This document shows, one piece after another, positions 1 through 15,356 of a DNA stretch of 64,000 nucleotides (position 1 is the first letter of the stretch; every line of letters starts with the position of its first letter). Where the stretch lies: assembly GCA_027022365.1 (NCBI GenBank), contig JALVYU010000026.1, positions 96,001 to 160,000 on the forward strand. The letters run 5' to 3'. The stretch comes from Desulfurococcales archaeon. Lineage in GTDB: Archaea; Thermoproteota; Thermoprotei_A; Sulfolobales; Desulfurococcaceae. Both the position numbers and the translations under genes were made by a program. Under the pieces are notes generated by a model. That model was not told the DNA's origin. It was given only the letters and a program-made list of their open reading frames with translations, and made no database searches.

Positions 1-564
1 GTAGCCGCGTTTTCCTCTATAACCTTTCAGAAACAGTTCTCTCCTTACCAGCTCACTCAGCAACTCCGAGGAGGCATTGACGAGAACATCCACAGATAAC
101 ATTCTTTCATTAAGCCATTCCTCCACGATCTTTATTACCTGGTCGATTTTGCCGAAGAACTTCTCCCTAACACTCTCGAAGACCTCTTCATAGTAAGGAC
201 AGGATTCTTCGATAGCACGACATCTATCCATATACATTGAAAACAATGACTCGATATCTCTTCTAACATTGTCCCGATCCATGCCTTTTCTAAGATCATT
301 CTCTATCCGGTTAAGGATGAAGTGGGCCAGTAAACACTTAGCTCCATGTATCCCGTAGTTCTTTACTATATAGCTGTACATGAGTGGGAACTCGTTCTTC
401 TTAAACCCGAAATGAACCGGGGCCTTCTCCTCCAAATCCTGGTATGGGAGAACATCTTTAACCCGCGGAGGCTCTTCATCAATAACCCTATCTATAACCC
501 TACACAGAACATCGTCTAATCCAAGGATCCTATAAACCTTGGAGTGAATCTCCCAGCCCGGCAT
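1..564 (-). CDS. Hypothetical protein with MPxWxxH N-terminus (3' end outside the window); paralog of 7646..8407
   Basis: Manual translation from ATG at 564 gives MPGWEIHSKVYRILGLDDVLCRVIDRVIDEEP...LLAHFILNRI..., open to position 1. Not in the ORF track because there is no stop in the window. Confidence 0.8.
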   Translation of the reverse strand, partial: MPGWEIHSKVYRILGLDDVLCRVIDRVIDEEPPRVKDVLPYQDLEEKAPVHFGFKKNEFPLMYSYIVKNYGIHGAKCLLAHFILNRIENDLRKGMDRDNVRRDIESLFSMYMDRCRAIEESCPYYEEVFESVREKFFGKIDQVIKIVEEWLNERMLSVDVLVNASSELLSELVRRELFLKGYRGKRGY

Positions 565-720
565 AGGATATCAGCCTAATATTAGTTTATGAGGTCTTCT
601 CCATAAAAAGGGTACATGGAGTATCTTGGAAGATAAGGTACTTGGGGATTATGATATGCCGAAAAACCTGTGGCTTCAGGCGACGGGTGGGCAGGGAACG
701 CTTTTCTAGCTCTTTCTGGG

Positions 721-888
721 CTACTTGTGTATTCCTAGCCTGGCTATTACTCCGGCTACGTGTTCTTGTTCTAGGGTATCAATTATATCGTCAATGATCT
801 CAAGTGCTTCATCTATGCTTGGGGCTGTAGCTACCCGGTCTCGGATATACTTTATGATTGCTATGCATTCGGAGCATGGGTTGTTCAC
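721..888 (-). CDS. Small helical hypothetical protein (55 aa)
   Basis: GTG start preceded by GGAGGTG SD; reads MNNPCSECIAIIKYIRDRVATAPSIDEALEIIDDIIDTLEQEHVAGVIARLGIHK. The listed + ORF 725..994 reads like its antisense shadow. Confidence 0.55.
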   Translation of the reverse strand: MNNPCSECIAIIKYIRDRVATAPSIDEALEIIDDIIDTLEQEHVAGVIARLGIHK

Positions 889-1011
889 CCGGCTCCCACC
901 TCCCCCGCGGTTGTTCCCCGCTAGGCTCTCGGTAGCCGTATTTAAAACACTGGGGCACCGGCAAAACTATTTGGGGATGAAAAGGATCTCCTGAGTACTT
1001 CAAGGCTCTGC

Positions 1012-1019
1012 TTTATAAG
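1012..1019 (+). promoter_or_regulatory. Canonical TATA box of the tfb-tbp operon
   Basis: TTTATAAG 40 nt upstream of the ATG at 1052. Confidence 0.5.
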
Positions 1020-1051
1020 GATGAAAGTATTCAATACAGGGGTACAGCGTC

Positions 1052-1675
1052 ATGCTTGTCTATGATAAATCCAGGGCCGAAGTAGTGGATGCGGAGACCG
1101 GCCTAGTGGTTGAGGATAGACTTATTGATCCGGGGCCCGAGTGGAGGAGCTACAGGCCGGAGAGCCGTAGATGCCACATAATGCACCGCCGGGAACCCGA
1201 GGAACTGAGGTTCTTCCGGGGCCTAGTACCCAGATACGTGTATGAGGACGCTGGCCATATTATGAGGAAGCTGAGGCTCGGAGGCCGTGCAGGGGCCCTA
1301 GCAGCCCTTATGTATTCCGCCAAGAGGTACGGCGTACCCCTACCAGCCGAGGTATTCTACTTCATCGATTATGAGAAGAGGAGCGTCTACAGGGTCTATA
1401 GGAGGATCGTGGAGGAGCTGGGGCCGCCCGGTAGGATGGAGGATGCGGCTGTAGCCCAGGTGGCCGGGCTGGCGGTTAGACTCGGCAAACCGCACCTAGC
1501 TCCATTAGTGGTTAAACTATATAGGAGGCTCAGGGAGAGGAACCAAGGCTATAGATCCACTACCCTAGCCGCCGTAGCCCTCGTCAAAGCCGGGCTCCCC
1601 GCCCGGGAAGTCTCCAAGTATCTTGGAGTAGCCCCCTCTACGCTCTCCAAGGCATTGAAACGGGTGGAGGCCTGA
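1052..1675 (+). CDS. tfb: Divergent short transcription initiation factor B (TFB/TFIIB-like)
   Basis: N-terminal LVYDKSRAEVVDAETGLVVEDRLIDPGPEWRSY matches the TFB ribbon/GPEWR motif (Cys-less); two cyclin-like repeats (AALMYSAKRYGVP; GYRSTTLAAVAL); C-terminal HTH. Confidence 0.85.
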   Translation: MLVYDKSRAEVVDAETGLVVEDRLIDPGPEWRSYRPESRRCHIMHRREPEELRFFRGLVPRYVYEDAGHIMRKLRLGGRAGALAALMYSAKRYGVPLPAEVFYFIDYEKRSVYRVYRRIVEELGPPGRMEDAAVAQVAGLAVRLGKPHLAPLVVKLYRRLRERNQGYRSTTLAAVALVKAGLPAREVSKYLGVAPSTLSKALKRVEA

Positions 1676-1679
1676 GACG

Positions 1680-2186
1680 TTGGAGCCCCGCGTAGAAATA
1701 GTAAACATCGTCGCAACGATCAAGCTAGAGCCGATGCCAGATCCTGGAGAAGTACTGGGGAAGATACCGGGCTCCAGGCCAGTTAAGAGGTTCCGGGGAG
1801 CAATGCTGAGGATCGGTAAAACCCCTGTGCTGTTCTACAAGAAGAAAATCATAGTAACCGGGGCGAAGAATACCGAGGAGCTCAGAGACACTATAAGGAA
1901 ACTAGTAAGTGTGCTTCATAGGTACGGTATGGAAGCAAAGCCTAGGGGATACGAGATAGTCAATGTAACTGCTAAGGTGGATTTAGGTAGAAGGATAAAC
2001 CTCGTAGAAGCCGCGGAGAGGCTTGGCGGCATCTATGACCCGGACTACAGGCCATACATGGTGGCAAGGATAAACGATACAGTGATAATGCTATCACACA
2101 ACGGAAAACTAGTAATGCTGGGAGCAAAGTCCATTAAAAAATGCTATATGATTTCCGAACATGTTGTTAACAATATATTTCCGTAA
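1680..2186 (+). CDS. tbp: Divergent TATA-binding protein (TBP-like)
   Basis: Two TBP repeats: EIVNIVAT...KIIVTGAKN and EIVNVTAKVDLGRRINL...YDPD...GKLVMLGAKS; starts 4 nt after the tfb stop. Confidence 0.9.
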   Translation: MEPRVEIVNIVATIKLEPMPDPGEVLGKIPGSRPVKRFRGAMLRIGKTPVLFYKKKIIVTGAKNTEELRDTIRKLVSVLHRYGMEAKPRGYEIVNVTAKVDLGRRINLVEAAERLGGIYDPDYRPYMVARINDTVIMLSHNGKLVMLGAKSIKKCYMISEHVVNNIFP

Positions 2187-2296
2187 TACATTCTAGCCAG
2201 TAATATATTTGAGCCAAAGTGTGCTCTGCATTCTCAGACTAAGCACTGTTGCTGAAAATGTTCTATGAAATATATCCCATAAATTATCCGGAAACA

Positions 2297-2305
2297 GTAA
2301 CTATA
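2297..2305 (+). promoter_or_regulatory. Island promoter motif variant GTAACTATA
   Basis: 44 nt upstream of ATG 2341. Confidence 0.5.
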
Positions 2306-2340
2306 AGTGATAGAATATTACATGATTTATATAGAAAAAG

Positions 2341-2823
2341 ATGGTGATGTTTTTAATGAGCTTCCATATAGTTTTATCTGAGGAGGAGACATTTAATAGA
2401 CTAGTGAAGTATTTTGTAGGAAGGAGATTAAAGATACTATCTCTACATAAACCTTCACACATTAAAGTGGAAATCGGCAAATTGTTCTCACTATGGTTTG
2501 GAGAAGCGTTAGGGGTTGTGGATATCAATATTATGAAGCTGGGCAATCATAGTTTAGTCAATCTATACTTTAACTTTCTTAGGGAATATATCTCCGGATT
2601 AATATTGTCTATACTGCTATCGTTTATTCTCACTATATATGGACTACTCATAGACGCGCCCTGGGATGCTGTACTTCTTTTAGCGATTACTGTATTCGCA
2701 ATAGTTATGCTCCTAGAGGGATACAATGTGGCCGTAACAAGGAAGAAGTTCGTAGAGGAGCTATCTTTATTCGTTCAATCAATAAACTCAAACAAGGTGA
2801 ATATAAATGGCAGGCATGATTGA
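2341..2823 (+). CDS. Membrane protein (2 C-terminal TM helices)
   Basis: 160-aa ORF with a hydrophobic hairpin. Confidence 0.7.
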   Translation: MVMFLMSFHIVLSEEETFNRLVKYFVGRRLKILSLHKPSHIKVEIGKLFSLWFGEALGVVDINIMKLGNHSLVNLYFNFLREYISGLILSILLSFILTIYGLLIDAPWDAVLLLAITVFAIVMLLEGYNVAVTRKKFVEELSLFVQSINSNKVNINGRHD

Positions 2824-3877
2824 TCGTGGAGAAAGAAAAGCTGGGGTACCAGTTGTAGCTCTCATTATTACACTAGTATTCATTGCCTTATTGACTATTC
2901 TTTCACCCAAAGTCGACATCTTTACCACATCATCAACGAATAACACCGGAGGAGCTTCCGCGGACCTTGAAAAGCTTATATTAAGCAAGGTCGACCCGTT
3001 AGCCGTCAGAGAATTCGCCGTTAAACTAACAACTGATCCTCTCAATGCTTTTCCTAATCTATGGAGTAAGTATACTTTAATAGATGAGGAAAGATTCCTC
3101 GAGAAAGGCTATTACTGGTATATAAAGATTAGATTGAGTACGCTCGAAGGAATAAATGGAAGTATAGAGTCAAATACACCAGTAGATTTCTATGTTGTTG
3201 ATGAAGAAGACTTTCTACATTTCAAAGAAGGAGAATCATTCTATTACTACACAAAGCCTTCACGTATAAACATATACAGATCAAGCTTTGAGTGGAATGC
3301 ACCACGTGATGGAACATATTATCTAATAGTATATGCAAAATATGGGAATGCAAGGGTAAAACTAAGAGTCGATACATTCACGAAACCCTTCCTAAGCGGG
3401 TTCCCATATAATATAGAAGACAGAGAAGCATGGTATATATGGATAATAAACGTATGGGTCGCAAAGAACATACACTACATCCCGGATCCAAATTTTGAAC
3501 TAGTACAAGATCCTAAACAAACATTAAGGCTAAGAGCTGGAGACTGTGATGATGTAGCAGTACTAATGGCGTCTATGTATCAAGCAGTAGGGCTAAAAAC
3601 CAAATTCGCAGAAGTAGATACAGATGGAGACGGAAAAATAGACCATATAACAGTCCTAGTGTACTACCATGGAACACCTAAAGAATTCCTAGACAGCGAA
3701 GAAACAATAGCATTCATGGCAGGACTAATATCAAGACTGCCAGATGAATACTCGGTAAGATACATAAAAGGCAATAACGGCATATGGATCATAGCTGACC
3801 CATTATTCTCGGAAAGCAACTACTGTGTAGGAATGATAGAACACGAACCATACAAAATAAAAAATATATTCCCATAA
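2807..3877 (+). CDS. Membrane-anchored transglutaminase-like (Cys-His-Asp) protein
   Basis: N-terminal TM; GDCDD catalytic Cys motif, downstream DHI and IIADP complete the triad; beta-sandwich middle domain. Confidence 0.8.
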   Translation: MAGMIDRGERKAGVPVVALIITLVFIALLTILSPKVDIFTTSSTNNTGGASADLEKLILSKVDPLAVREFAVKLTTDPLNAFPNLWSKYTLIDEERFLEKGYYWYIKIRLSTLEGINGSIESNTPVDFYVVDEEDFLHFKEGESFYYYTKPSRINIYRSSFEWNAPRDGTYYLIVYAKYGNARVKLRVDTFTKPFLSGFPYNIEDREAWYIWIINVWVAKNIHYIPDPNFELVQDPKQTLRLRAGDCDDVAVLMASMYQAVGLKTKFAEVDTDGDGKIDHITVLVYYHGTPKEFLDSEETIAFMAGLISRLPDEYSVRYIKGNNGIWIIADPLFSESNYCVGMIEHEPYKIKNIFP

Positions 3878-4111
3878 ATAGCAATGTATGGGCTGGATCC
3901 TCGCGGTTTGATGATGAAGTGTTAATTGGAACGTATTTTAGCGTCGCTTAAATCATATTACACTATATATAATTACATAATGATGTTAATAATTATTATA
4001 TGTTGTTCAGATGCTTAAACAGTTGTTGTAAATTACACTGTACATGGTACTTATACGGTGTCCGGTGCTTTATTCTCGCTTTATTTATCTATACAATTCC
4101 CCATGTAGTTT

Positions 4112-4200
4112 CGATACACTGGGGAGTACACTCCAGTTTGTACTTGTGTTTATACTCCAGTTTGTACTCTGGGAGCGAGACACGAGTGTATCGGTGTACT
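4112..4200. repeat. Two 15-bp direct repeats nested inside a 9-bp inverted repeat
   Basis: ACTCCAGTTTGTACT at 4130-4144 and 4154-4168; CGATACACT 4112-4120 / AGTGTATCG 4185-4193; AGTACAC 4125-4131 / GTGTACT 4194-4200. Confidence 0.75.
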
Positions 4201-4232
4201 ATGCGGAGCATGTCACTCTACGTTATCAATAA

Positions 4233-4241
4233 GTAACTATG
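4233..4241 (+). promoter_or_regulatory. Island promoter motif GTAACTATG
   Basis: 30 nt upstream of the in-frame ATG 4263 (would fit a leaderless transcript). Confidence 0.55.
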
Positions 4242-4262
4242 GACTACGCTGGTGGATTGTTA

Positions 4263-4532
4263 ATGGTGGCTGTATTGAAGGTTGTCCAGTGTATTCTCGG
4301 CTACCTGGCGGAGAAGGAGATAGCGATGCCCATACAGGTGGAGCGTGACCTGAAAATATCGAGGTACCTGGTGTTCGGCTCCCTGATAATCATGGAGGAG
4401 CTCGGCCTCGTCGAAGCGATTGCCAAGAGGGCTAACTGGAAGCTCTACAGGATAACCGATAAAGGCAGAGAATTATTGGAGAAGGGAAAAACAGTTATAG
4501 AGTTGGAGGCTACCGGCCGAGAACCCTCTTAA
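4263..4532 (+). CDS. Winged-helix DNA-binding protein
   Basis: MEELGLVE...LYRITDKGRELL wHTH signature; ORF track starts at 4239 but ATG 4263 is more likely. Confidence 0.75.
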   Translation: MVAVLKVVQCILGYLAEKEIAMPIQVERDLKISRYLVFGSLIIMEELGLVEAIAKRANWKLYRITDKGRELLEKGKTVIELEATGREPS

Positions 4533-6465
4533 CGGCATCTACAACGTTGTCGGGGATAGCCGCTTCAGCCCCGAAACCCCTAATGTAATCCAGGTATTTT
4601 TCACCCACCACGAACAGTATTCTAGCCCCGCTTTTCCCGGCCCTCTCAATGTATTTCCTTATCTTCCCGGGATCCCTGCTGGGACGGGTCTCCACCTCGA
4701 TGAACAAGACATTACCAGTATCCCATGAATTGGCGTCTCGGTATGGTATGGCGATTACATCTGGGATCTCCCGGAGAGGCTCTTCGCCGGTATCGATCCA
4801 TGTCCATACTCCGAGGTTAAGCCTCAGCTCCTCCACGATCCTCCTGATAGCTTCCTGGTGCTCGGGTCCTCCAGCCCTCTCACCGCTAAACACCATCTCT
4901 ACAAGCCTCCTACCCTTATCCGTAAGTTTGTAGAGCCTAGGCCTCCTACCCCTACCACGGGTTCCTGCCTCATAGACCTCTACAAGGCCGAGCTCAGCCA
5001 GCCCGCGGAAAACGCCATACACAGAACTACCCGATATACCGAAGAACCCGGCAACACGCTTCTCCAAAACCTTAGTAGGCATATCGCCCTCATAGTACAA
5101 CACATACAATACATAAGCCTCTATAGGCCTGACCGGGGGCTCTTTAACCTGGATAGTACCGGGCTCCTCCTTTTCTCCAGCCTCCTCGGCTACTTTAGCT
5201 TCGGCTTTCTCCTCTACCGGGGCCCCGTAGAGTTCCAGGCTCCTTGCTATCCTTTTACTGATCTCCGGGTCATCCTCAAACATAGATCCCTGGACATCAA
5301 CGGGAATATATACTGTATTGAGGGTGAAGGGTCTAACAGGCTTACCGTGGACCTCGGTTTTAACCGCGAACCAGTAGAGAGGCAAATTGATCAAGTCTTT
5401 CTCGGAGAATATAGGCTCGTAGAGCTTGGCCAGTAGCTTAGCCGATTTAAGCCCAACCCTGAACGTTATAAAGGTTCTGCAGTTGCCTAGTATGGCGTCC
5501 AGTATCTCCCGCGGGTACTGCTCGGGATATTGAGTAGCCAGTGTAAGATATAGCTTGTACTTACGGGCCTCGGCAAGAATATCGATAAGGGTTGGAACGG
5601 TGAAGTTGTGGGCCTCGTCGATGTATAGGTAGTGTGGGATCCTCATCCTAGGAGCAACATCGATTCTGGACATGGCCGCCGAGAAAATCTTGCCGATGAT
5701 CAATGTGCCGAGGAAGTGTGAAACCTCTTCGGTGAGCCTACCCTTACTGAGATTAATGACTATGAAAGCCCTCGAATCCATGAGCTTCCTGAAGTCAATA
5801 GTGGACCTTCTAGCAGAGAATATAGGGCGGAGTATCCTGGAGCCAACGAGCTTGCTTATCTTGTTCACAACGCTGATAATAGCGTCTTTTGGTAGGCGGG
5901 GCCATTCCTCCTCCCAGAACTTAGCCACCAGGGGATCCTCGACATTAGCTACGAGCTCGTTTCTCCTATCCTCGTCGACAAGCAGATAGTAGAGATCCAG
6001 GAGACTAGTAGACCCAGGCGGCTGCTCTAGGAGGGTGTTTACACAGTTCCTCAATATATGCTCCAGCCTAGGACCCCAGAAGTCCTTGAAAAGCTTCTGC
6101 AACGCAGAAATAAACGCCTCACCCACACGCTCCCTATCCCATTCATCACGATACTCGAGGAAGTTTATCCTCACGGTCTTGCCGAATACCTTAATCGTTG
6201 TGGGGTCTATGTAGACAAGCCTATCAACTCTATCCTCGGGTATCAGCTTAACGATTTCAAGGGCAAGGTCTCCATGCGGGTCCAGCAGGCTGAATCCCTC
6301 GCCGAGGTCTATGTGTTGCTTGATAAGGAACTTGAGCAACGTCGACTTGCCTGTGCCGGATTTACCGAAAACCGCTATGTGGAGGCGATCCACCTTATAG
6401 ATCCCGTACTTCTTCTCCTTAAAGGATCCAAGGTACACTACCTCGTCTAGACGCTTAAGCTCCAC
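4510..6465 (-). CDS. VirD4/TraG/HerA-type P-loop ATPase with C-terminal wHTH and PD-(D/E)xK nuclease-like domain
   Basis: Walker A GKSGTGKS, LLDPHGDL, Walker B LYIDEAHNF, EARKY..LTLATQ; C-terminal GLVE..LYKLTDKG wHTH followed by H...IPDVI...FIEVET. Confidence 0.85.
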   Translation of the reverse strand: MELKRLDEVVYLGSFKEKKYGIYKVDRLHIAVFGKSGTGKSTLLKFLIKQHIDLGEGFSLLDPHGDLALEIVKLIPEDRVDRLVYIDPTTIKVFGKTVRINFLEYRDEWDRERVGEAFISALQKLFKDFWGPRLEHILRNCVNTLLEQPPGSTSLLDLYYLLVDEDRRNELVANVEDPLVAKFWEEEWPRLPKDAIISVVNKISKLVGSRILRPIFSARRSTIDFRKLMDSRAFIVINLSKGRLTEEVSHFLGTLIIGKIFSAAMSRIDVAPRMRIPHYLYIDEAHNFTVPTLIDILAEARKYKLYLTLATQYPEQYPREILDAILGNCRTFITFRVGLKSAKLLAKLYEPIFSEKDLINLPLYWFAVKTEVHGKPVRPFTLNTVYIPVDVQGSMFEDDPEISKRIARSLELYGAPVEEKAEAKVAEEAGEKEEPGTIQVKEPPVRPIEAYVLYVLYYEGDMPTKVLEKRVAGFFGISGSSVYGVFRGLAELGLVEVYEAGTRGRGRRPRLYKLTDKGRRLVEMVFSGERAGGPEHQEAIRRIVEELRLNLGVWTWIDTGEEPLREIPDVIAIPYRDANSWDTGNVLFIEVETRPSRDPGKIRKYIERAGKSGARILFVVGEKYLDYIRGFGAEAAIPDNVVDAVKRVLGR

Positions 6466-6502
6466 TACCCTCTCACCATCGGGAAAATGATTACGGGAGA
6501 CA

Positions 6503-6511
6503 CGTAGTTGC
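6503..6511 (-). promoter_or_regulatory. Island promoter motif variant GCAACTACG
   Basis: 46 nt upstream of GTG 6465. Confidence 0.6.
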
Positions 6512-6594
6512 AGGTTAATGGATAAGTGTGGTGTACCGACCCCTTACAAGCTAGTCATGGAGGCCTCCAAGGGATTACGGGTTAGTATTCTCCC

Positions 6595-6603
6595 GCAACT
6601 ATG
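6595..6603 (+). promoter_or_regulatory. Island promoter motif GCAACTATG
   Basis: 45 nt upstream of GTG 6640. Confidence 0.65.
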
Positions 6604-6639
6604 CTTAACCGTTCCACTCTATAACGTGGTGTATGAACC

Positions 6640-7578
6640 GTGTGGTCTTACCTCGAGATAATCCCTCACCCGGAGACCAGGATTGAACCCCTACAATTAG
6701 AGGATTTCATAGCGGCACTTTACGGTACAAGGGCTACCTGGGCATACATTATAGTATATGACGGCGGCCATCTAGGCTTCTACTACATAGTGCCTCGGCA
6801 ACTAACGAATAGTACGGTTAAGAGCCTTGAGTCAAGGTTCAACAAGATCATTATAGAGGAATCCAAGCCCCCTAGATTGATCGATTATAAATATTATACG
6901 GAGCTTAGACTGCTCAAAAGCTTCTACTACCCATTATTCCACCTAACAAGACAGAAAGAGATAGAATCCAACCCCGTAGACGTGATTGCCTCAAGCATGC
7001 TCGGAGGGGAGAGCATGGTATTAATAATAGCTACGCCAGAGCCCCGCGGAGCAGGAGTAATAGCTGGATTCGTCTACGAGAAGAAAACAGGTAAACCAGC
7101 AAGCACTGGGAAAATAATACTAAAAGAAGCCCTAAGCCTAGGAGACGCATTCTTCGGCTCAACAAGCTCTACCACGTCAAAACAACAATACGTGTATAAG
7201 CCCGAGCTAACCGAGGAGGAGAAAAGAATCCTACGTGAAGCCCAGTACAAGATGCACCACCAACTATACGCAACGAGGATAATAGTCCTAGCAAAGGAGG
7301 AAGACCTAGTCTACGATATAGCCAGTAGCTTCAATCAATTCCCATTAAATGGTTTCACCTTTAAAGTAAAAGAGGTGAACGAGAAGATCCTCCGAGAGAT
7401 AAAAGAGCTTAAACCAAGAAGACTGGGCCTGTTATTTAAGGATAAGAAAATACCGGTCCTGAGCCCTAGAGAACTAGCGGCATATGTGAACCTGCCTACG
7501 GCACTGGATACTTTGCCGGTGAAAACTGCTTCAATAATACTTAATCCCCCGCCTGAAATCCCGGAGGAAGCGGATTAA
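6640..7578 (+). CDS. Hypothetical protein resembling the N-terminal accessory domain of large VirD4/TraG-like ATPases
   Basis: Motif order YLEIIP, GFYYIVP, ELRLLKSFYYPL, NPVDVIASSM, IASSFNQF..NGF, VLSPRELAAYVNLP; family recognised from memory, not by search. Confidence 0.6.
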   Translation: MWSYLEIIPHPETRIEPLQLEDFIAALYGTRATWAYIIVYDGGHLGFYYIVPRQLTNSTVKSLESRFNKIIIEESKPPRLIDYKYYTELRLLKSFYYPLFHLTRQKEIESNPVDVIASSMLGGESMVLIIATPEPRGAGVIAGFVYEKKTGKPASTGKIILKEALSLGDAFFGSTSSTTSKQQYVYKPELTEEEKRILREAQYKMHHQLYATRIIVLAKEEDLVYDIASSFNQFPLNGFTFKVKEVNEKILREIKELKPRRLGLLFKDKKIPVLSPRELAAYVNLPTALDTLPVKTASIILNPPPEIPEEAD

Positions 7579-7645
7579 GCATTACATGCTCTTTCACTTG
7601 GCTTATTAGTGAATAGCATTACATTGATTTATCTAGGGGTATAGG

Positions 7646-8407
7646 TTGCCGGATTGGAATACTCATGTTAAATGGGCTAGTAGGCTCGGCATAGATAGGG
7701 AGATTGCAGAGTTTATCAATAAATTGATTGATGACCCTGAGGAAGTATTGAAGGATGACCCTACAGAGCTGGGTGAACTGTATAGGAGGGATCCGGAGGG
7801 CGTTAAAGCCGCCCTAATAGGACATGATTGGGGTAGGAAGGGTAAGGCTAGGCTTGACATTTTGAAGACTTACTGCCGTATACGGTTTGGGGAGAAGGGA
7901 GTAATGGCTACCGAACTACACCATGTCCTCGACTATTTAACACATATAAGAAGCCCGGAGAACCTGGCCAGAATAATTGTTAGCTCATCAATATTTCACG
8001 CGACAAGCGGTAAACCATTAAGCGAGAGGATGAAACTCGTAAAAGAATTCTACTGGAATAGAAGAAAATATTCTGAATCTCTGGAAAGGCTTACGGAAGA
8101 AATAGCGAAGCTGGACTATGAATCCTATAAGAACATAATAATCGAGCTCCTAAAGAATAAGGCACAAGAATGGGAGTTGCACAGAGAAGTCTATGACTTT
8201 GTGATCAATAACCTAGACGAGATACTGAAGGACATCGACAAGTATCTTGCAAAGAAAAGAAAACGAATAGCACGCTCACTATCGATTAACACACTAGACA
8301 AATGGACTGAAAAATTAACCGCTCTTCTCATAGGTATTATACAAGTCCTTATCCCAGTGTCTCTCGAACTGATAGCTCTCGTATCTTGTCCGTATTATTC
8401 GTGGTAG
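7646..8407 (+). CDS. Hypothetical protein, possibly a metal-dependent hydrolase (MPDWNTH...IDDP...GHDW...HHVLD)
   Basis: His/Asp-rich motifs; paralog of 1..564; the last ~30 aa overlap the convergent gene and may be read-through. Confidence 0.65.
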   Translation: MPDWNTHVKWASRLGIDREIAEFINKLIDDPEEVLKDDPTELGELYRRDPEGVKAALIGHDWGRKGKARLDILKTYCRIRFGEKGVMATELHHVLDYLTHIRSPENLARIIVSSSIFHATSGKPLSERMKLVKEFYWNRRKYSESLERLTEEIAKLDYESYKNIIIELLKNKAQEWELHREVYDFVINNLDEILKDIDKYLAKKRKRIARSLSINTLDKWTEKLTALLIGIIQVLIPVSLELIALVSCPYYSW

Positions 8408-9520
8408 TCTTGGCAGGGCTGTTGCTCCGCGGTAAATGTATCTCCCCAGCTTGATTCCTGCTTTTACTCCATAGCCGGGGCCTAGACCCGTTGCCCCACT
8501 ACCAGCGGCACTAGCTAGGATGTATCCCCTGAATACCCTCACGGCAGGGTAGACCGTGTACCCTAGTAGTGCTGAAGCGGCAAAGCTCGCGAAACCGCTG
8601 CGGCCGACGAACATTGGTGCTATGAGTGGTATTGTTAGGCTCGCGATAGCTATCATTACTTTGACGATTGCATCCTCGAGGCTTGAGCCCGGAATACCCA
8701 TTGCTATTGCAGAGGCCACAGCGATCATTGAACCGGCTACGAGCTGAACCAGTGTTAGGGCTATCAGGGTCTCGATAAGCATAGCGGCTATCCTGTTTAT
8801 CTTGGGGATGAGGCTTAGGACGAGGAGTATCGGGAGAATAGCCGCCAGGGTAGCTACCGCCAGTATCCTCACGGCCCCGGCTACGGCTACCACGAGTATG
8901 AAGAGGAGTATCAACGGGTCAATGATGATGGCCAGCCCGCCTATGCTCCCGAAGCCTATACCGAGATACCATGACAACGTATCGGGCGGGCATAGATAAT
9001 ACGTTATGGCTGACAACAAGTGGACGGAGTACTCGTAGAGAAGCATGGATAGGGGTATGAGTACGGCTATCCAGAGACTCTTCTTAACCATGAGCATGCC
9101 CTCGCCCTCCCTGATCAACCCGAAGCTCTCCAGCCCAATAGATAATGCACCGAGGACTATGGGCAGAGATAGAAGGACATAGGCTACGAGCTTAGTCTTC
9201 TCATACAACATCAGCATCTCCGGTACACGGACCTCGTACCAGGAAACATTCTTTACCGGGCCCCAATCCGCATACTCCGGAATAGGGTTCCCTGGGACAG
9301 GCTTAGACGGAGCCCTCAGCAACGGGCCGACGGCTCCCCAGAAAGCACTGTTAAGCTGGCCTGCGAGCCACTTGAAAGCGGATAGTATGGCCTCCTTAAT
9401 CTTGTTGATGATGTCCTCGATAGGGTTCCCTGAGGGCTGAGACTCAAACCCGTACCCATAAACGCCTCCGGCGGGTCCAAGAACGATCAGCAGGGCTAAA
9501 AGGACCGCGAAACCCCTCAT
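8315..9520 (-). CDS. Polytopic membrane protein, VirB6/CedA-like channel candidate
   Basis: Signal peptide plus about 7-8 TM helices and a Gly-rich basic tail; located among transfer genes; ATG 9520 preferred over TTG 9532. Confidence 0.65.
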   Translation of the reverse strand: MRGFAVLLALLIVLGPAGGVYGYGFESQPSGNPIEDIINKIKEAILSAFKWLAGQLNSAFWGAVGPLLRAPSKPVPGNPIPEYADWGPVKNVSWYEVRVPEMLMLYEKTKLVAYVLLSLPIVLGALSIGLESFGLIREGEGMLMVKKSLWIAVLIPLSMLLYEYSVHLLSAITYYLCPPDTLSWYLGIGFGSIGGLAIIIDPLILLFILVVAVAGAVRILAVATLAAILPILLVLSLIPKINRIAAMLIETLIALTLVQLVAGSMIAVASAIAMGIPGSSLEDAIVKVMIAIASLTIPLIAPMFVGRSGFASFAASALLGYTVYPAVRVFRGYILASAAGSGATGLGPGYGVKAGIKLGRYIYRGATALPRLPRIIRTRYESYQFERHWDKDLYNTYEKSG

Positions 9521-9555
9521 AATACGCCCCAAAAAGAAACAGCTTGGAGAAAGGA

Positions 9556-9564
9556 TATAGTAAC
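9556..9564 (-). promoter_or_regulatory. Island promoter motif variant GTTACTATA
   Basis: 44 nt upstream of ATG 9520. Confidence 0.45.
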
Positions 9565-9583
9565 AGAACGGTAAAAAACCGTG

Positions 9584-9991
9584 TCAGTTCAGGCTATAAA
9601 GGAAAACATTTGAACCCGTAACAACGACTACTCTGTCAGGAAATCCATATTTTTCGGGAACATACAGCGTTATCTCCCTAACCATCCCCGGCTCCACGGT
9701 TACGGATACTGCCACGGAGTACCCCGGCACACCGAGCTTAACTATCCTGGCCTCCTCCCACCCGGCATTGTATATCCAGAGCTTGACAACATAGTGTCTA
9801 TTCTCGTAAGCTACACTATAGTCCGCCAAGACGAGCCTGACAGTTTTAGCGTGTGCTTCAAGGCCTATAAGGGAGCCGATGCCCGAAAACCCTCTCGCCT
9901 TCGAGAAGAGTATAGGGTAGGCTAGAGCGAATCCAGCAATGGTTATCCCTATGAGAACGATTGCCGCCACAACGTTTGATACGGCCTTCAA
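9584..9991 (-). CDS. Archaeal type IV pilin-like protein
   Basis: Class III signal KA/VSNVVAAIVLIGITIA followed by a beta-sandwich with YNAG. Confidence 0.8.
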   Translation of the reverse strand: MKAVSNVVAAIVLIGITIAGFALAYPILFSKARGFSGIGSLIGLEAHAKTVRLVLADYSVAYENRHYVVKLWIYNAGWEEARIVKLGVPGYSVAVSVTVEPGMVREITLYVPEKYGFPDRVVVVTGSNVFLYSLN

Positions 9992-9994
9992 GGC

Positions 9995-10501
9995 TCACCC
10001 TACTCCTCTCCTGCACATAATGTTGACGGACACAGTCTTCGTGTTGCCGTAGGGATCCGAGTAGGTTATCTTGACAACATATGTTTTCCCTACACCTATG
10101 TCCTGCTTGTCCAGGGTGAAGGTCCATGTATCACTGTATGTCTCGCCGGGAAGTATCTGCTTCCCCACGTTGATCGTGTACCTGGTCCCCCACTGCCCCT
10201 GGCTATCCGTCCCAATGATCTCTATCTTCGTTATGGTGGCGGGATCCGTGCCCGAGTTAGCCAGCTTAACGCTCACCATGTAGTCGTACTCGGTCTTCCA
10301 CTGCCACCCCTGCTTAACCCTGCTGGTGCCCAGATAGTATAGCTCGACGCCGCTGACCGCTATGGCTGCTCCCTTAGGGTTGCTACTCTTTATCGTCGTG
10401 GTCATGTAGTAGCCCAGCAGCAATGCACCCGCTATAGCCACACCTATCAAGACCACGGCCGCTATGACGGGGCTTATAGCCTTCATCCTCTTCCTACCCA
10501 T
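9995..10501 (-). CDS. Archaeal type IV pilin-like protein
   Basis: Class III signal RKRMKA/ISPVIAAVVLIGVAIAG, NSGT motif; ATG 10501 preferred over TTG 10519. Confidence 0.85.
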   Translation of the reverse strand: MGRKRMKAISPVIAAVVLIGVAIAGALLLGYYMTTTIKSSNPKGAAIAVSGVELYYLGTSRVKQGWQWKTEYDYMVSVKLANSGTDPATITKIEIIGTDSQGQWGTRYTINVGKQILPGETYSDTWTFTLDKQDIGVGKTYVVKITYSDPYGNTKTVSVNIMCRRGVG

Positions 10502-10535
10502 AGAGGGCACCCGGTACAAGATACGTGGTAAAAGA

Positions 10536-10544
10536 CATAGTTAC
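10536..10544 (-). promoter_or_regulatory. Island promoter motif GTAACTATG
   Basis: 43 nt upstream of ATG 10501. Confidence 0.65.
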
Positions 10545-10560
10545 GTATCATGAATGCTCC

Positions 10561-10569
10561 GTAACTATT
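10561..10569 (+). promoter_or_regulatory. Island promoter motif variant GTAACTATT
   Basis: 42 nt upstream of ATG 10603; back-to-back with the 10536-10544 copy. Confidence 0.6.
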
Positions 10570-10602
10570 CCTCGCCACAACGCTCATAGCGGGAGAGAAG
10601 GT

Positions 10603-11100
10603 ATGGCCAAGCTACTAGCACACCAGATCCTGGGACTAGCGGTAGCCTACTATGTCCTAAGACCAGGAGACCTCGTGCAGGCATTCATATATGGAGGCCT
10701 AGCCCTATTAGGCTCCGTGACTCCTGATCTGGACGGGTTGCGTAAACACCGGGCAACCCTCCACAACATATTCGCCCTCATCCTGGCCGGACTAACGATA
10801 TATATGGTTCTTAATACTGTTGAAGCCCTGAACATGGCTCCGGTAAACCTGTATCCGGCCAGTTCAGCTGTAGCCTACATACTAGCCTATCTAAGCCACC
10901 TACTAGCCGATATACCGACTGGATCCGGAGTAGCAATTCTCTATCCACTATCTAATAAGAAGATCGGAATACTAGGCCTCAAATACGACAATATGGTGTA
11001 CAACGGTTTACTGGTAGCCCTAGCTACTCTGCTCCTCTACTCGTTCTTCACCAATGCACTGACCCCTTATTATACTATAAGGGATTGGTTTATCCCCTGA
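10603..11100 (+). CDS. Membrane-bound metal-dependent hydrolase (YdjM/LexA-binding family)
   Basis: H...GSVTPDLD..HRATLH...YLSHLLAD..T..G...YP motifs; ATG 10603 preferred. Confidence 0.85.
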   Translation: MAKLLAHQILGLAVAYYVLRPGDLVQAFIYGGLALLGSVTPDLDGLRKHRATLHNIFALILAGLTIYMVLNTVEALNMAPVNLYPASSAVAYILAYLSHLLADIPTGSGVAILYPLSNKKIGILGLKYDNMVYNGLLVALATLLLYSFFTNALTPYYTIRDWFIP

Positions 11101-11163
11101 ACCAAGCATTCATGGTATGTACCCCAACGGCTACCGAGAAAAGCTTGAGGCCTAGTTGTTGAA

Positions 11164-11172
11164 GCAACTATG
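11164..11172 (+). promoter_or_regulatory. Island promoter motif GCAACTATG
   Basis: 47 nt upstream of ATG 11211. Confidence 0.65.
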
Positions 11173-11210
11173 TATCCAGGATTCCTAGGTCATGAAAGGG
11201 GTGAAAAGAT

Positions 11211-11438
11211 ATGGGCTTGGTCGTGGTCAGGACCTCTCTAGACCTTGAAAAGCTGGCCAGGCGACTGAAAAAACTCGGGTACGAGGAGATAACGCCAGGA
11301 GACCTCGCAGAGCTCTTCGGCACAAACAGGATTTGGGCGGGGAAGATACTCGCCAGGATGGAGGAGCTCGGTCTGGTGGAGAGGCTGAACTCCCGTAAGG
11401 CCAGGCCGGCAAAGTACAGGATCATTGTAAACCAGTAA
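11211..11438 (+). CDS. Small winged-helix DNA-binding protein
   Basis: ITPGDLAELFG...AGKILARMEELGLVER; GGGGTG SD. Confidence 0.8.
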   Translation: MGLVVVRTSLDLEKLARRLKKLGYEEITPGDLAELFGTNRIWAGKILARMEELGLVERLNSRKARPAKYRIIVNQ

Positions 11439-11443
11439 CTATG
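11435..11443 (+). promoter_or_regulatory. Island promoter motif GTAACTATG
   Basis: 46 nt upstream of TTG 11481; overlaps the upstream stop codon. Confidence 0.65.
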
Positions 11444-11480
11444 CAGGAAGTAGCCCGGGAAGTATTAACGGTGCACGGGC

Positions 11481-11813
11481 TTGAGGCTGTGGGTAAAATT
11501 TAAGAAGATATCCCGGCTCATACCGCTGTGGCTGGCCACTGGTTTATCGGCGGTGGCCTACGCCCAGGGAGGGGAGGCCCCGCCCGAGGAACTCACGGAA
11601 ATGGTCGACAAGATCCTGAGCCTGCTACAGTACATAGGGGTAGCAGTGCTTATAGGAGGAATGATCTATGCGGGGATTCAGCTCGCGGCGGCAGACACAC
11701 CGGAGGAGCAGGCCCGGGCAAAGAAGAGGATAGCAGCAATACTCCTAGCAGGAGCCATAATGGCTTTAGCCAAGCCTATAGTGAGCTGGCTCACCGGATT
11801 GAATCCGCCCTAA
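11481..11813 (+). CDS. VirB2/TrbC-like conjugative pilin
   Basis: Cleavable leader ending AYA/Q, two hydrophobic helices separated by a charged loop (EEQARAKKR); T-rich terminator-like tract follows. Confidence 0.8.
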   Translation: MRLWVKFKKISRLIPLWLATGLSAVAYAQGGEAPPEELTEMVDKILSLLQYIGVAVLIGGMIYAGIQLAAADTPEEQARAKKRIAAILLAGAIMALAKPIVSWLTGLNPP

Positions 11814-11914
11814 CTCCCTTTATTTTTCTCCGACTCTATAATTTACTTTTATGTCATTAGAGTAAACCATAATATATTCTCAGCAATATATCATATCAGG
11901 GGAGGGGAGTAGCC

Positions 11915-12358
11915 CTGAGAGAGCCTACGGGAGATGTTAAGGTTAAGAAGCTGGGGAGACAGCTTCTAATCAATATTCCTAGAGACGTAGTGGCTCATCT
12001 TGGCATGAAGCCGGGCTCCTTGGAAATAGTGTTGATGACCAGTGATAAGATTGTGCTTAGACGGGGCATGGGCCCGGTCAGGGTAGTGGATGTGGGGAGG
12101 GGGAAGCTGAGACTGTATATTGGTGAGGATAAAGCCCCCTTCAAAGAAGGAGAGCGGGTCCTGGTAACGGTCCAGGACGATAAGCTGGTGGTCAAGCGTA
12201 TAGACTACTACGTCGTGAAGCCGACCAAAGGGCGGGGACAGTACAGGGTAAACATACCCTGGGAACTAGCAGAGAAAACCGGCCTGGATAAGTATCGATT
12301 AGTCAAAATATATAGTGATGGAAAAAGGGTAGTGCTGGAGCCTTTCGCCGAGATATAA
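11915..12358 (+). CDS. Tandem AbrB/MazE/SpoVT-domain DNA-binding protein
   Basis: Repeated INIP..V..HLGMKPG / FKEGERVLV / VNIPWELAEKTGL units; frame is open back to CTG 11915 after a GGAGGGG SD (ORF track start 11990). Confidence 0.7.
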   Translation: MREPTGDVKVKKLGRQLLINIPRDVVAHLGMKPGSLEIVLMTSDKIVLRRGMGPVRVVDVGRGKLRLYIGEDKAPFKEGERVLVTVQDDKLVVKRIDYYVVKPTKGRGQYRVNIPWELAEKTGLDKYRLVKIYSDGKRVVLEPFAEI

Positions 12359-12363
12359 TAAAT

Positions 12364-12416
12364 ATTATGTGTTAAGGGCATAATATTTAAATAATATTAT
12401 GTCCTAAACACATAAT
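12364..12416. promoter_or_regulatory. 24-bp inverted repeat (operator) flanking the TATA box of the HEPN-MNT operon
   Basis: ATTATGTGTTAAGGGCATAATATT (12364-12387) matches the reverse complement of 12393-12416 at 22/24, around TTTAAATA. Confidence 0.7.
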
Positions 12417-12418
12417 GG

Positions 12419-12808
12419 TTGAGAATATTGGAACAGTGGAGAAAATACTTGGAAGCCGCTAAGAGATTCTTAAGATCAGCCGAGAAAATCCTAGATGAAT
12501 CACCAGAAGCAGTACCGCTATTAGCTCATAGAGCATTAGAACACATGATCATGGCTCTCTCATACTACTATACCCCAGAAGAAGCAAACTTACTCAACAC
12601 CCACGGCCGTAGGAGGAGCTGGATAACACGAATGATCCACCAGGGAAAAATACCATACAGACTCCTATCAATATTCGATGAGCTAACGAGGATCTATAAG
12701 AGGAGCACATATTTATTAGAGAACGGAGAACTAGCAAGGAGATCCCTAGAACTCGCCAAAGAGGCTTTGGAGAATATAAAGGAATCATTAAAGGGCGGCA
12801 CAGAATGA
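12419..12808 (+). CDS. HEPN domain protein (toxin of HEPN-MNT pair)
   Basis: YLEAAKRFLRSAE...AHRALEHMIMAL...TH...STY helical HEPN pattern; overlaps the MNT start (ATGA). Confidence 0.8.
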   Translation: MRILEQWRKYLEAAKRFLRSAEKILDESPEAVPLLAHRALEHMIMALSYYYTPEEANLLNTHGRRRSWITRMIHQGKIPYRLLSIFDELTRIYKRSTYLLENGELARRSLELAKEALENIKESLKGGTE

Positions 12809-13413
12809 GTCTCCCCACCAACATATTGATAGGGATCCTCCGAGAGATAACCAAGGAAATAATCCGAGAATGCAGAAACGTATACCAGGTCATACTCTAC
12901 GGTAGCTACGCCCGCGGAGATGCAGGTCCTAAGAGCGATGTAGACCTCCTAATAGTATCGGAGGACCCGAGAATATGCGAGGAAAAAACTATGAGAATAG
13001 GGGCTGAAAAAGGACTATCAATACTTCAACCAGTAGCTATCTCACCAGACGAACTAACTGAGCCCGAGAAGAAGAAACTATATCTTAATGCCCTACTAGA
13101 AGGCCTACTACTCTACCAGTCCCCAGCATCAGAACCAGTCAAGACAGCACCCCCAAAATACAAACCATACCTAATCATAAAATATAGAGCACCACCAGAA
13201 CACCGGAGAAAACTCACTGGCACAACAGTCGTTCAAAGAGGCCACAAGATGAGAGCACGAGGACTCATAGAAAAAATGGGAGGAATAAGATTAGGGCCCG
13301 GAGTATTCATGATAGAATACACGAAATGGCCACCACTAGAACTAATCATGCAAAAACTAAGAGTAGAATACAAGATAAAACACATAATACTAGCCAAAAC
13401 AGATTTCATATAA
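12805..13413 (+). CDS. Minimal nucleotidyltransferase (MNT) with C-terminal extension
   Basis: VILYGSYARGDAGPKSDVDLLIV. Confidence 0.9.
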   Translation: MSLPTNILIGILREITKEIIRECRNVYQVILYGSYARGDAGPKSDVDLLIVSEDPRICEEKTMRIGAEKGLSILQPVAISPDELTEPEKKKLYLNALLEGLLLYQSPASEPVKTAPPKYKPYLIIKYRAPPEHRRKLTGTTVVQRGHKMRARGLIEKMGGIRLGPGVFMIEYTKWPPLELIMQKLRVEYKIKHIILAKTDFI

Positions 13414-13471
13414 AAGTATATGATTTAAATGTGAAGCAAACGGCTTTTCCACGGATCACGAGTATGTAGCC

Positions 13472-13796
13472 ATAGCTACAGCGTGGAAAGGCGGAGCACG
13501 AAGGGAAAACCGTGACTGGAGCAGGTTCACCTATGGGATAAGGATAGGAAGGCGCGGTAGAGACGCCCTATTCAGCAGAGCCTGGAGCTACGTCGAGCTA
13601 ATCATTGAGGATAAGTACCGTATAAGCGTGGAGATAACGGATTCATTCTGGAGAAAATGCTCAGAGCTCAGGCACGAGTTCTTTAAACACTACTTCAGAG
13701 AAAAAGAATATAATCCATGGCCCAAAAGGAAACCCACCAAAATTCATGCTCGTACATGTAAGGGATAACGTGTTTAAGCTATACCCACTAGACTAG
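13472..13796 (+). pseudogene. Frameshifted small conserved-hypothetical gene
   Basis: IATAWKGG...YGIRIG...DSFWRKCSELR...PWPK, continuing in the +1 frame as GNPPKFMLV...FKLYPLD*; no in-frame ATG/GTG/TTG start. Confidence 0.55.
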
Positions 13797-13902
13797 TATC
13801 AATGATCTCAATAGCTGGAAGATCACTACGCATTTTGGACACCGTTGATACGGAGATATAATGAAACATAGTTATATGTAATTCATTACCGTTGAACATA
13901 AT

Positions 13903-14553: not shown

Positions 14554-14556
14554 GTT

Positions 14557-14991
14557 TCAGAGAAAGCTTCTGATTATTTCTTCGGCTAGAGGCTGGATGG
14601 TGTAGAACGCTATAATAGATACTACTATGACTATAATTGCTCTTAGAGTATTTCTCACTGTAAAATCTATTGTTTTACTGGTAAGGACAGCTAGTGCTAT
14701 GGAGGAGAGTAGCATAGACGATTTTATCTCGTTCAACAGATCGGATTCGATGCTTACCGAACCTATGGGAACTAGATCGGTGAGTTCACTGCTAACATTG
14801 ACTCCCGAAGCGAAGCTGGTGCTCAGCCCTGTTACTAGTGAAACTGTTAATACCAGCATTACCGGGGTGGTGTAGGCTAGGAGCTGCAATACCTGACGGA
14901 CACCGAGATCCCCTATAAACGGAAAGCTGAACAGTGGTTGCATCCACCAAGGTTCGTCATCAACTGCTGGAACTCTAACTTCTCTAGGCAT
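14557..14991 (-). CDS. PrgI/VirB3-like membrane protein
   Basis: N-terminal VRVP...PLF...LGVRQVLQLL followed by TM helices. Confidence 0.5.
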   Translation of the reverse strand: MPREVRVPAVDDEPWWMQPLFSFPFIGDLGVRQVLQLLAYTTPVMLVLTVSLVTGLSTSFASGVNVSSELTDLVPIGSVSIESDLLNEIKSSMLLSSIALAVLTSKTIDFTVRNTLRAIIVIVVSIIAFYTIQPLAEEIIRSFL

Positions 14992-15024
14992 TAACTATAC
15001 CAATATAGGTGAGAACGCCAAGAG

Positions 15025-15292: not shown

Positions 15293-15356
15293 ACCACCCA
15301 TTACTGTTCTAGTCTTATGGTGGGATTTATATTTTTGTGGTCTATTCTATTGTATC

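Follow-up and report, generated by a model that had tools for sequence, protein, structure and literature searches.

A selected TATA-binding protein paralog with a one-sided loss of intercalating phenylalanines and a compact TFB partner on a mobile island of a hydrothermal-vent archaeon

A stretch of 64,000 nucleotides from a Desulfurococcales archaeon (contig JALVYU010000026.1, positions 96,001 to 160,000 of the forward strand) was analysed, and this whole stretch is called the window below. Close to its left end, two genes form a tight operon on the forward strand. The upstream gene (1052–1675) encodes a compact transcription factor B (TFB) paralog, 207 amino acids long, which is composed of a Cys-less ribbon, a shortened B-reader/linker, two compact cyclin repeats and a C-terminal helix-turn-helix (HTH). 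The downstream gene (1680–2186) encodes a divergent paralog of TATA-binding protein (TBP) with 168 amino acids, and its TTG start codon lies 4 nt after the TFB-like stop codon. Pfam matching, alignments with solved TBPs and a residue table of the family indicated that the second open reading frame (ORF) is a true two-repeat TBP with a one-sided loss of the Phe pair of the C-terminal repeat. The pair rides on a mobile island of about 17 kb, and the hydrothermal-vent archaeon that carries it keeps its own TBP and two TFBs.

The Pfam TBP family (PF00352) matched the ORF at 1680–2186 in two stretches with 67.3 bits against a cut-off of 22.9. Both TBP repeats were also recovered in a whole-genome scan with 44.6 and 24.2 bits, respectively. 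The closest solved structures are archaeal TBPs, namely 1mp9 (E = 5e-16), followed by 1pcz and 2z8u. TBP-type features were seen in a homolog from the ESM Atlas (P0004). All of the NCBIfam TBP cut-offs were missed, the best score being 76 bits vs 181, and orthology with the housekeeping TBP was therefore not indicated. No PHROG family was found for the protein.

The Phe pair of the C-terminal repeat, F190 and F207 in yeast TBP, kinks the 5' end of the TATA box. The general role of the Phe pairs in TBP is treated in PMC6672047. The residue register of the TBP-like protein was identical across three phmmer alignments (1mp9, 1pcz and 2z8u) and two MAFFT alignments with the canonical TBP of the host. 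Repeat 1 retains both intercalating residues, F38 in KRF (codon 1791–1793) and F52 in VLF (codon 1833–1835). In repeat 2, one Phe is replaced by R124 (codon 2049–2051; PDYRP opposite PEQFP) and the other by S139 (codon 2094–2096; IMLSHNGK opposite LLIFSSGK), and a Thr is replaced by L147 (VMLG opposite VITG). The original prediction had described the ORF as a TBP with exactly this asymmetry. Its coordinates and quoted strings were right, and the loss of the Phe pair survived proper alignment with archaeal TBPs. An additional replacement in repeat 2, V to T97 (NVT opposite NIV), was absent from that prediction, as were the residue Y126, the mini-TFB partner in the operon, the mobile-element context and a haloarchaeal precedent.

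As read from the translation, residues 53 to 166 contain no Phe at all. Of the four intercalating Phe that a canonical TBP carries, two per repeat, only the N-terminal pair is left. The conserved Asn and Thr/Val residues on the underside of the TBP saddle are minor-groove residues. In the TBP-like protein, N9, V11, T60, N95 and V145 are unchanged at these positions, while T97 stands for V and L147 for T. R124, S/T139, T97 and L147 are all on the same DNA-facing surface of repeat 2. The canonical F-P-G of this repeat is replaced by R-P-Y, which puts an invariant tyrosine, Y126, two residues past R124. If the segment is a beta-strand, Y126 would face the same side as residue 124, and the aromatic wedge may be displaced rather than absent.

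A word-indexed search gave 16 relatives with 48–78% identity, and DNA loci were added from metagenome and genome scans. The resulting residue table of the family has 21 to 22 rows, fragments included. F is found at position 38 in 20 of 20 rows and at position 52 in 20 of 21, with S in one fragment. Position 124 is R in 20 of 21 rows (L in the locus L029), and T97 is present in all 21. Position 139 is S in 15 and T in 6 of the 21, and position 147 is L in 15, W in 4 and I in 2. The 116 other TBP representatives behave differently: F is present in 108 at column 124 and in 105 at column 139, column 126 is G in 100 and A in 12, and column 97 is V in 99. R124, Y126 and T97 are thus fixed novelties of the TBP-like family, since they are invariant or nearly so in the family vs F, G/A and V in other TBPs. 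The stirrup GIYDPDYRPY is the most conserved segment, with a mean pairwise identity of 0.88; the corresponding values are 0.74 for repeat 1, 0.56 for repeat 2 overall and 0.21 for the last helix.

Relaxed selection was looked for through the ratio of nonsynonymous to synonymous substitution rates (dN/dS) among homologs, as the original prediction had proposed. The values are 0.11–0.28 (pairwise Nei-Gojobori, own script, pairs with unsaturated dS). The TBP-like gene is under purifying selection and is not decaying. The frames are intact in the window and in the loci L029, L030, L032, L033 and L034. At the locus L035, the DNA identity with window positions 1010–2090 is about 98% over the TFB-like gene and falls to 45–67% from about 1790, inside the TBP-like gene. 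Therefore, TBP-like alleles have been exchanged by recombination behind a near-identical TFB-like gene. An extra half-copy of 108 amino acids was observed in the genome G096 (G096:C17:1662–1967; L042, protein P0017). It consists of repeat 2 only, bears the DPDYRPY stirrup and lies about 2 kb downstream of the full-length TBP-like copy on the same contig.

When all of 1.84 billion cluster representatives were searched with HMMER, 2509 matched at E ≤ 1e-3 and only 4 at E ≤ 1e-30. These four are the family representative, the distant relative P0032 and two fragments. P0032 and P0039 carry a YDP[DE]YRP stirrup, and their four Phe sites read L, I, R, Y and L, V, R, F, respectively. P0032 thus lacks Phe at all four positions, and the N-terminal pair is replaced also in P0039 (L/V). 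Because the two proteins share the Arg stirrup and yet differ at the other Phe sites, this stirrup marks a wider clade in which those sites vary. In a maximum-likelihood tree of 130 rows, the 17 core members form one clade with a support of 97 in the Shimodaira-Hasegawa-like approximate likelihood ratio test (SH-aLRT). The core together with P0032 and P0039 forms a clade of 19 rows (SH-aLRT 99), whose stem has 0.92 substitutions per site vs 0.10 for the median inner branch. The sister group of the clade was not resolved in this tree (SH-aLRT 60, beside long branches), and no donor lineage is claimed. The Phe sites were also surveyed in 119 rows, made up of 117 representatives of 150–230 amino acids, the host TBP and the window protein. 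FFFF was read in 81 of them. Four rows keep the N-terminal Phe pair without both C-terminal Phe, namely the window protein, P0116, P0121 and P0175.

The TFB-like gene is located directly upstream of the TBP-like gene in all seven related loci with upstream sequence; L033 is too short to tell. Pfam Zn_Ribbon_TF matched the TFB-like protein partially and under the cut-off (23.2 bits vs 29), Pfam TFIIB (PF00382) gave no match at E ≤ 0.1, and the NCBIfam score was 38.6 bits vs a cut-off of 384. Residues 2–34 align to the ribbon of P. furiosus TFB (1pft, residues 16–48), with D13 and T16 in place of Cys. A Zn ribbon of four Cys/His is not present, and the first CxxC would precede the ORF start. The family alignment A3 (13 sequences) was compared with the 311-aa TFB of the host by hhalign. 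A probability of 97.5% was obtained, and residues 2–205 were aligned to 22–300, which spans the ribbon, the two cyclin repeats and the HTH at the C-terminus. The TFB-like protein has no equivalent of a stretch of about 70 residues, in the B-reader/linker region, that separates the ribbon from the first cyclin repeat in the host TFB. GPEWR and an LRFF segment are still present. The ribbon and the GPEWR segment are almost invariant across the TFB-like family, and the dN/dS of the gene is 0.06–0.18. The copy in G145 has an in-frame stop, at a contig coverage of 1.4x.

The host genome (G000) holds a canonical TBP (G000:C7:152047–152631), which passes NCBIfam with 335.5 bits vs 270, and beside it two canonical TFBs; the host TFB passes with 498.6 bits vs 384. 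In the ribbon of the housekeeping TFB of the host (L041:1438–2373 = G000:C26:586732–587667), only two Cys were read (ECPED ... YICLLTG). Since the host's own TFB is also Cys-poor, a Cys-poor ribbon seems to be a trait of the lineage, not of the island copy alone. Another ribbon-like segment was noticed on the island. A 109-aa ORF located about 1.6 kb to the left of the window (L027:16047–16376, minus strand) resembles a TFB zinc ribbon at residues 68–95 (Pfam Zn_Ribbon_TF, 17.6 bits, below the cut-off). An ordinary A/T box stands in front of this ORF, which is also conserved in L030, and a weaker copy of its ribbon segment is found at C26:411300–411398.

The operon of the pair has a canonical TATA-like box, TTTATAA, read from the sequence at 1012–1018 on the forward strand, 33 nt before the TFB-like ATG. 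An A/T box (TTTATAA, TATATATA or TTTAAATA) stands 31–35 nt before this ATG in all five loci with usable upstream sequence. A genome-wide histogram of TATA-like hexamers before long ORFs showed no peak, owing to crudely called starts, and gave no TATA-to-ATG distance of the host for comparison.

The island spans about 91.0–108.3 kb of the contig C26. Its left end is about 5 kb before the window, and window positions 1–12295 belong to it. G097, G099 and G100, which are of the same genus, match the window only from about 11922 onward. Of the genomes in the genus, G096 alone matches the 19 kb upstream, having a copy of its own. In the 20 kb locus L043, which contains the island, the span of about 2002–19295 is covered by contigs of four vent metagenome runs, and three of the runs have loose ends at 19295, which equals window position 12295. 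No RNA run is among the 13 runs listed with the island. No circular junction was obtained from the metagenome contigs laid over the island, and a 16-nt piece at the loose ends is absent from L043. No att-type direct repeats were found for the island and no integrase in this copy of it. A tyrosine-integrase fragment adjoins the TBP/TFB pair in L005. No relative was found in viral contigs. The TBP-like family occurs in three of 351 genomes of the class, all within one family, and in two of six genomes of the genus, counting G000. The island neighbours are mostly ORFans. The recognised genes encode a HerA/TraG-like ATPase with a PadR-like C-terminus, an EarA-like winged helix-turn-helix (wHTH) protein, a transglutaminase-like protein and a YdjM-like protein, and no replication gene was recognised on the island. 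Its patchy distribution, its absence from close relatives and its mobility genes are those of a mobile element.

Some observations concern the borders and the cargo. Just right of the island, window positions 12419–13413 contain a gene pair, one gene for a HEPN protein (22.2 bits) and one for a nucleotidyltransferase (46.6 bits), which was read as toxin-antitoxin-like. The segments 12006–12310 and 13472–13796 recur near C26:262–268 kb with 95–98% identity. In the related elements L030 (3959–5026) and L034 (1594–2652), a radical-SAM protein similar to spore-photoproduct lyase is carried as cargo beside the TFB-like/TBP-like pair, and L030 also carries a DUF5131 protein.

The nine-nucleotide motif GYAACTATR is enriched on the island. 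It occurs 9 times in the window vs 2.44 ± 1.46 expected, a number reached in none of 100 shuffles, and 7 times in L043 vs 0.82 ± 0.92 expected, reached in none of 200 shuffles. Six of the nine window copies lie between 2297 and 11443. All of these six, out of the seven exact copies in L043, are followed by the start codon of an ORF of at least 60 amino acids at 33–38 nt. The background rate for a start codon in the test window of 30–40 nt after the motif is 9.1%. In island order, GTAACTATA at 2297–2305 (plus strand) stands 35 nt before the ATG at 2341 of a 160-aa ORF, which is followed by the transglutaminase-like gene. At the EarA-like wHTH gene, GTAACTATG at 4233–4241 (plus) overlaps the first ATG (4239), and an in-frame TTG is located 33 nt downstream; this copy is retained in L028, L029, L030 and L031. 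The HerA/TraG-like ATPase gene, which starts with the GTG at 6465, is preceded at 37 nt by a copy with one mismatch, GCAACTACG at 6503–6511 (minus). The ATPase ortholog in L030 has an exact GCAACTATA at a distance of 34 nt, and a second copy, adjoining it back to back, serves the divergent gene. GCAACTATG at 6595–6603 (plus) stands 36 nt before the GTG at 6640 of a 312-aa ORF, and GTAACTATG at 10536–10544 (minus) 34 nt before the in-frame ATG at 10501 of a 174-aa ORF, which shares an operon with ORFs of 135 and 405 amino acids. The last two are GCAACTATG at 11164–11172 (plus), 38 nt before the ATG at 11211 of a 75-aa wHTH-like ORF, and GTAACTATG at 11435–11443 (plus), 37 nt before the TTG at 11481 of a 110-aa ORF. 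The 405-aa ORF carries GTTACTATA; in the L030 ortholog of this ORF, GTTACTATC precedes the ATG by 36 nt.

The motif therefore stands where a TATA box would be in seven transcription units of the island. Six of these have an exact copy and the seventh has one mismatch, and the unit of the 405-aa ORF may be an eighth. The position of the motif is equivalent to that of a TATA box because the A/T box of the TFB-like operon stands at nearly the same distance, 31–35 nt. Two other island units carry A/T boxes. The exact nine-mers are preserved in G096 contigs which are just 71–75% identical in DNA. Specifically, exact GTAACTATG copies at G096:C188:2048–2056 (contig match about 73% identical) and G096:C188:597–605 (about 71%) match the expected places of the copies at 10536 and 11435. 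The contigs with motif clusters were all island-like and came from the carriers G000 and G096; among short contigs, clusters are present in G096 and absent in G097, G099 and G100. At the left island border (L027:12925–12937 = L043:1925), just before the point where the metagenome contigs start covering the island, the seventh L043 copy forms a perfect palindrome, GCAACTATGTTGC. Another cluster was observed outside the window at G000:C26:262689–267937 (L044:4689–9937). Its copies are on one strand, and two of them stand 34–36 nt before an ATG. The locus contains ORFans, a DUF3800 protein and a MazE-like protein, and it shares just one small AbrB/MazE-like gene with the island.

The motif has the same orientation in the island units, with GYAAC upstream and TATR downstream. 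In the crystal structures of yeast, plant and Pyrococcus TBP (TBP-DNA and TBP-TFB-DNA), the C-terminal repeat with its stirrup points to the upstream side, where the TFB recognition element (BRE) and TFB are. Therefore, the Phe-less repeat would lie over GYAAC. The original prediction had held that the altered repeat fits a motif whose 5' half departs from TATA. The motif itself proved real, enriched on the island, placed like a TATA box and oriented rightly for this fit. Its assignment to the TBP paralog is less secure in view of other DNA-binding candidates and of the second cluster, as discussed below.

The reading which we favour, tentatively and at slightly less than an even chance, is that the two proteins form an element-specific TBP/TFB pair which would serve the GYAACTATR promoters of the island as an activator. 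The host TBP and TFB would transcribe the operon of the pair, because it has an ordinary TATA box. The two products would then make an element-specific pair of basal factors, in which the mini-TFB would dock on the TBP paralog at its invariant C-terminal stirrup, GIYDPDYRPY. The Phe-bearing repeat 1 would kink the TATR half, and the remodelled repeat 2 would read the GYAAC half without the canonical 5' kink. Finally, the host RNA polymerase would be recruited to island promoters bearing GYAACTATR in the TATA place, with a logic like that of a phage sigma-factor cascade. A bolder version is doubtful. According to this, the island would be the first archaeal mobile element with its own TBP/TFB pair and its own promoter code, the Arg/Tyr stirrup (R124, Y126) would replace the 5' Phe wedge, GYAACTATR would be read half-kinked, and the host RNA polymerase would be switched from TATA to the island promoters.

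Several observations weigh against an activator pair that owns the motif. The island encodes at least four wHTH-type candidates for motif ownership, which were rated equally good: the EarA-like ORF, the PadR-like C-terminus of the ATPase, the ORF at 11211–11438 (MarR-like by eye) and an AbiEi-like ORF. The six GYAACTATR copies at C26:262.7–268 kb form a cluster at a locus without any TBP or TFB gene, so the motif could belong to another factor. Genome-wide, 12 of 92 motif copies have a start codon in the test window, and no spacing is preferred. In five relatives, GTAACTATG is no more frequent than its reversed control. The A/T-rich 5' flank of the motif (TGATAA-like) might be the actual TBP site. 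On the protein side, the mini-TFB is short of about 70 residues around the B-reader/linker, a region which is required for promoter opening, and the complex may thus be non-productive. The Leu at position 124 in L029 is also unfavourable, and the half-TATA logic fails for the wider clade because P0032 and P0039 have lost the N-terminal Phe pair as well.

Alternatively, the pair would act as a repressor or decoy, sitting on GYAACTATR or on host promoters as a dead-end complex unable to open DNA. The island genes would then be kept silent, maintaining the integrated state, or host transcription would be dampened. The TFB-like protein is about 100 amino acids shorter than the host TFB with a gap in the B-reader/linker region, its ribbon is without Zn ligands, and the loss of one Phe pair should weaken bending. 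The TATA position of the motif in most island units is equally the location of a repressor site. However, the TFB ribbon and the GPEWR segment dock on RNA polymerase, and their near invariance is unexpected for a pure DNA blocker. An operator-only motif would still need a TATA box nearby, but none was obvious at the usual distance in the island units inspected. The lack of Cys is no sign of inactivity either, as the ribbon of the host TFB is Cys-poor too. A repressing pair is considered unlikely. We regard it as slightly more improbable that the motif and the TBP paralog are unrelated, GYAACTATR being the operator of an island wHTH protein or of a host factor, and the pair boosting island transcription generally at ordinary A/T boxes or with host partners. 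The several wHTH proteins of the island, the second motif cluster without a TBP/TFB gene, the weak A/T-rich element immediately upstream of the motif and the palindromic border copy GCAACTATGTTGC, which resembles the sites of dimeric HTH proteins, would suit this view. Besides, according to PMC5501381 no archaeal TBP paralog has an established consensus motif. Yet the motif has the same spacing as the TATA box of the pair's own operon, and four DNA-facing positions of repeat 2 that were changed and then fixed are hard to square with ordinary TATA binding. As for the second cluster, its locus was found within the genus only in G096, the other pair carrier, with 75% DNA identity, and it keeps there four nine-mers, two of them 32–34 nt before an ATG. 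Because it is present in the genus only in carriers, the restriction of the cluster, seen in two genomes, is compatible with an action of the pair in trans.

Two further explanations were weighed. The TBP-like protein could serve the element by bending DNA, as an accessory protein in its replication, partition or integration, and have no role in transcription. Archaeal viruses and plasmids have rolling-circle Rep proteins that employ TBP-fold domains (PMC13107129), and the stirrup has three invariant Tyr residues (Y119, Y123 and Y126). The island also has no recognised replication gene. Against this, the protein is a genuine two-repeat TBP of PF00352 with 168 amino acids, not Rep_trans or DUF7845, and it is translationally coupled to the TFB paralog in every locus. 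Y119 is not family-specific, being Y in 113 of 116 ordinary TBPs. Such an accessory role is very improbable. Hardly credible is the view that the gene is a duplicate in decay or without function, whose Phe residues disappeared as selection relaxed, as has been proposed for haloarchaeal tbpC (PMC4230888). The in-frame stop in the TFB-like copy of G145 and the extra half-copy in G096 could be taken as signs of decay, although the coverage of the former contig is low. Decay of the TBP-like gene is contradicted by its low dN/dS and by the conservation of the replacement residues themselves, and the frames are intact in the window and the five loci named above.

It has long been asked whether the many TBP and TFB paralogs of archaea work in the manner of sigma factors, with a promoter for each. 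A review of 2017 states that none of these paralogs has an established consensus motif (PMC5501381), and a review of viral transcription in archaea assumes that archaeal viruses and mobile elements depend on the TBP and TFB of the host (PMC5569661). The island TBP is a selected paralog on a mobile element, predicted to be functional, in which the C-terminal half of the saddle is remodelled and which has a mini-TFB as its dedicated partner. The island is a compact test system, since it combines a dedicated TBP/TFB operon, a selected and remodelled half-saddle and a candidate box of 9 bp at the TATA position of seven units. If the link with the motif is true, it would show in what way a TBP can recognise DNA other than TATA and how gene timing is controlled by an archaeal mobile element.

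The canonical archaeal TBPs (S. acidocaldarius 1MP9; P. woesei 1PCZ, 1AIS and 1D3U; the host gene) are of the same two-repeat saddle type with about 170–190 amino acids. The TBP-like protein shares with them N9, N95, R44, R130 and V145 as well as both N-terminal Phe and the acidity of the C-terminal stirrup, in which D120 and D122 stand for two Glu. It is 28% identical to the host TBP. It differs from the canonical protein by F to R124, F to S139, V to T97, T to L147 and G to Y126, and two of its loops are shorter by 3 and 2 residues. Metazoan TRF2 (TBPL1) has altered intercalating Phe residues as well; it does not bind TATA, serves non-TATA promoters and still uses its TFIIB interface. To our knowledge, no sequence-specific box has been assigned to TRF2. 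It is eukaryotic, unlike the island protein it is not mobile, and its substituted positions are others. The tree gave no special relationship of the TBP-like clade to TRF2, with the placement of the clade itself unresolved. Sulfolobus TFB3 offers an example of a truncated TFB that acts with full-length factors. Phage sigma factors are promoter-recognition subunits of the phage itself, which are expressed from a host-type promoter and redirect the host RNA polymerase to the promoters of the element. Their likeness to the island pair is an analogy only, because the proteins are unrelated and the bacterial system is experimentally established.

Haloarchaeal TBP paralogs are partly plasmid-borne, and the megaplasmids of Halobacterium carry tbp genes. 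The one-sided loss of Phe in archaeal TBP paralogs is already in print for this group (Becker et al. 2014, PMC4230888). In that study, 18 of 21 tbpC-like TBPs lack the N-terminal Phe pair, and other paralogs without only the C-terminal pair are just mentioned. These pair-lacking paralogs were considered to be perhaps relics, and tbpC to be possibly non-functional (PMC4230888). In the haloarchaeal paralogs and the TBP-like family alike, one repeat loses its Phe pair, the other keeps it, and a canonical TBP coexists. However, the tbpC-like group loses the N-terminal pair and the TBP-like family the opposite one, so the family does not fall under the tbpC-like definition. It further differs from tbpC in its hyperthermophilic archaeal host, its small integrated element and its purifying selection. 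PMC4230888 reports no partner TFB operon, candidate motif or selection evidence for the haloarchaeal paralogs.

TFIIB homologs, among them a single-cyclin form, are known from thaumarchaeal integrative-conjugative elements and from type IV pilus loci (PMC6563490, PMC4858521), and the TFB paralogs on mobile elements include arCOG01981 and arCOG05559 (PMC4858521). Like the TFB-like protein of the island, they adjoin ATPases of the VirD4/TraG or HerA type and include shortened forms. In contrast, neither TBP nor TATA is named in the main text of PMC6563490 and PMC4858521, whereas the island TFB shares its operon with a dedicated TBP. Outside haloarchaea, the literature searches gave no account of a small integrated element with a dedicated TBP/TFB operon, though supplementary tables might list such genes. 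A functional parallel is given by the specific TBP-TFB paralog pairs of Halobacterium, which are summarised in PMC5501381. The idea in Halobacterium, as for the island, is that paralogous basal factors pair specifically and partition transcription. According to that review, none of the paralogs has an established TATA-type motif of its own, whereas the island pair has a candidate motif.

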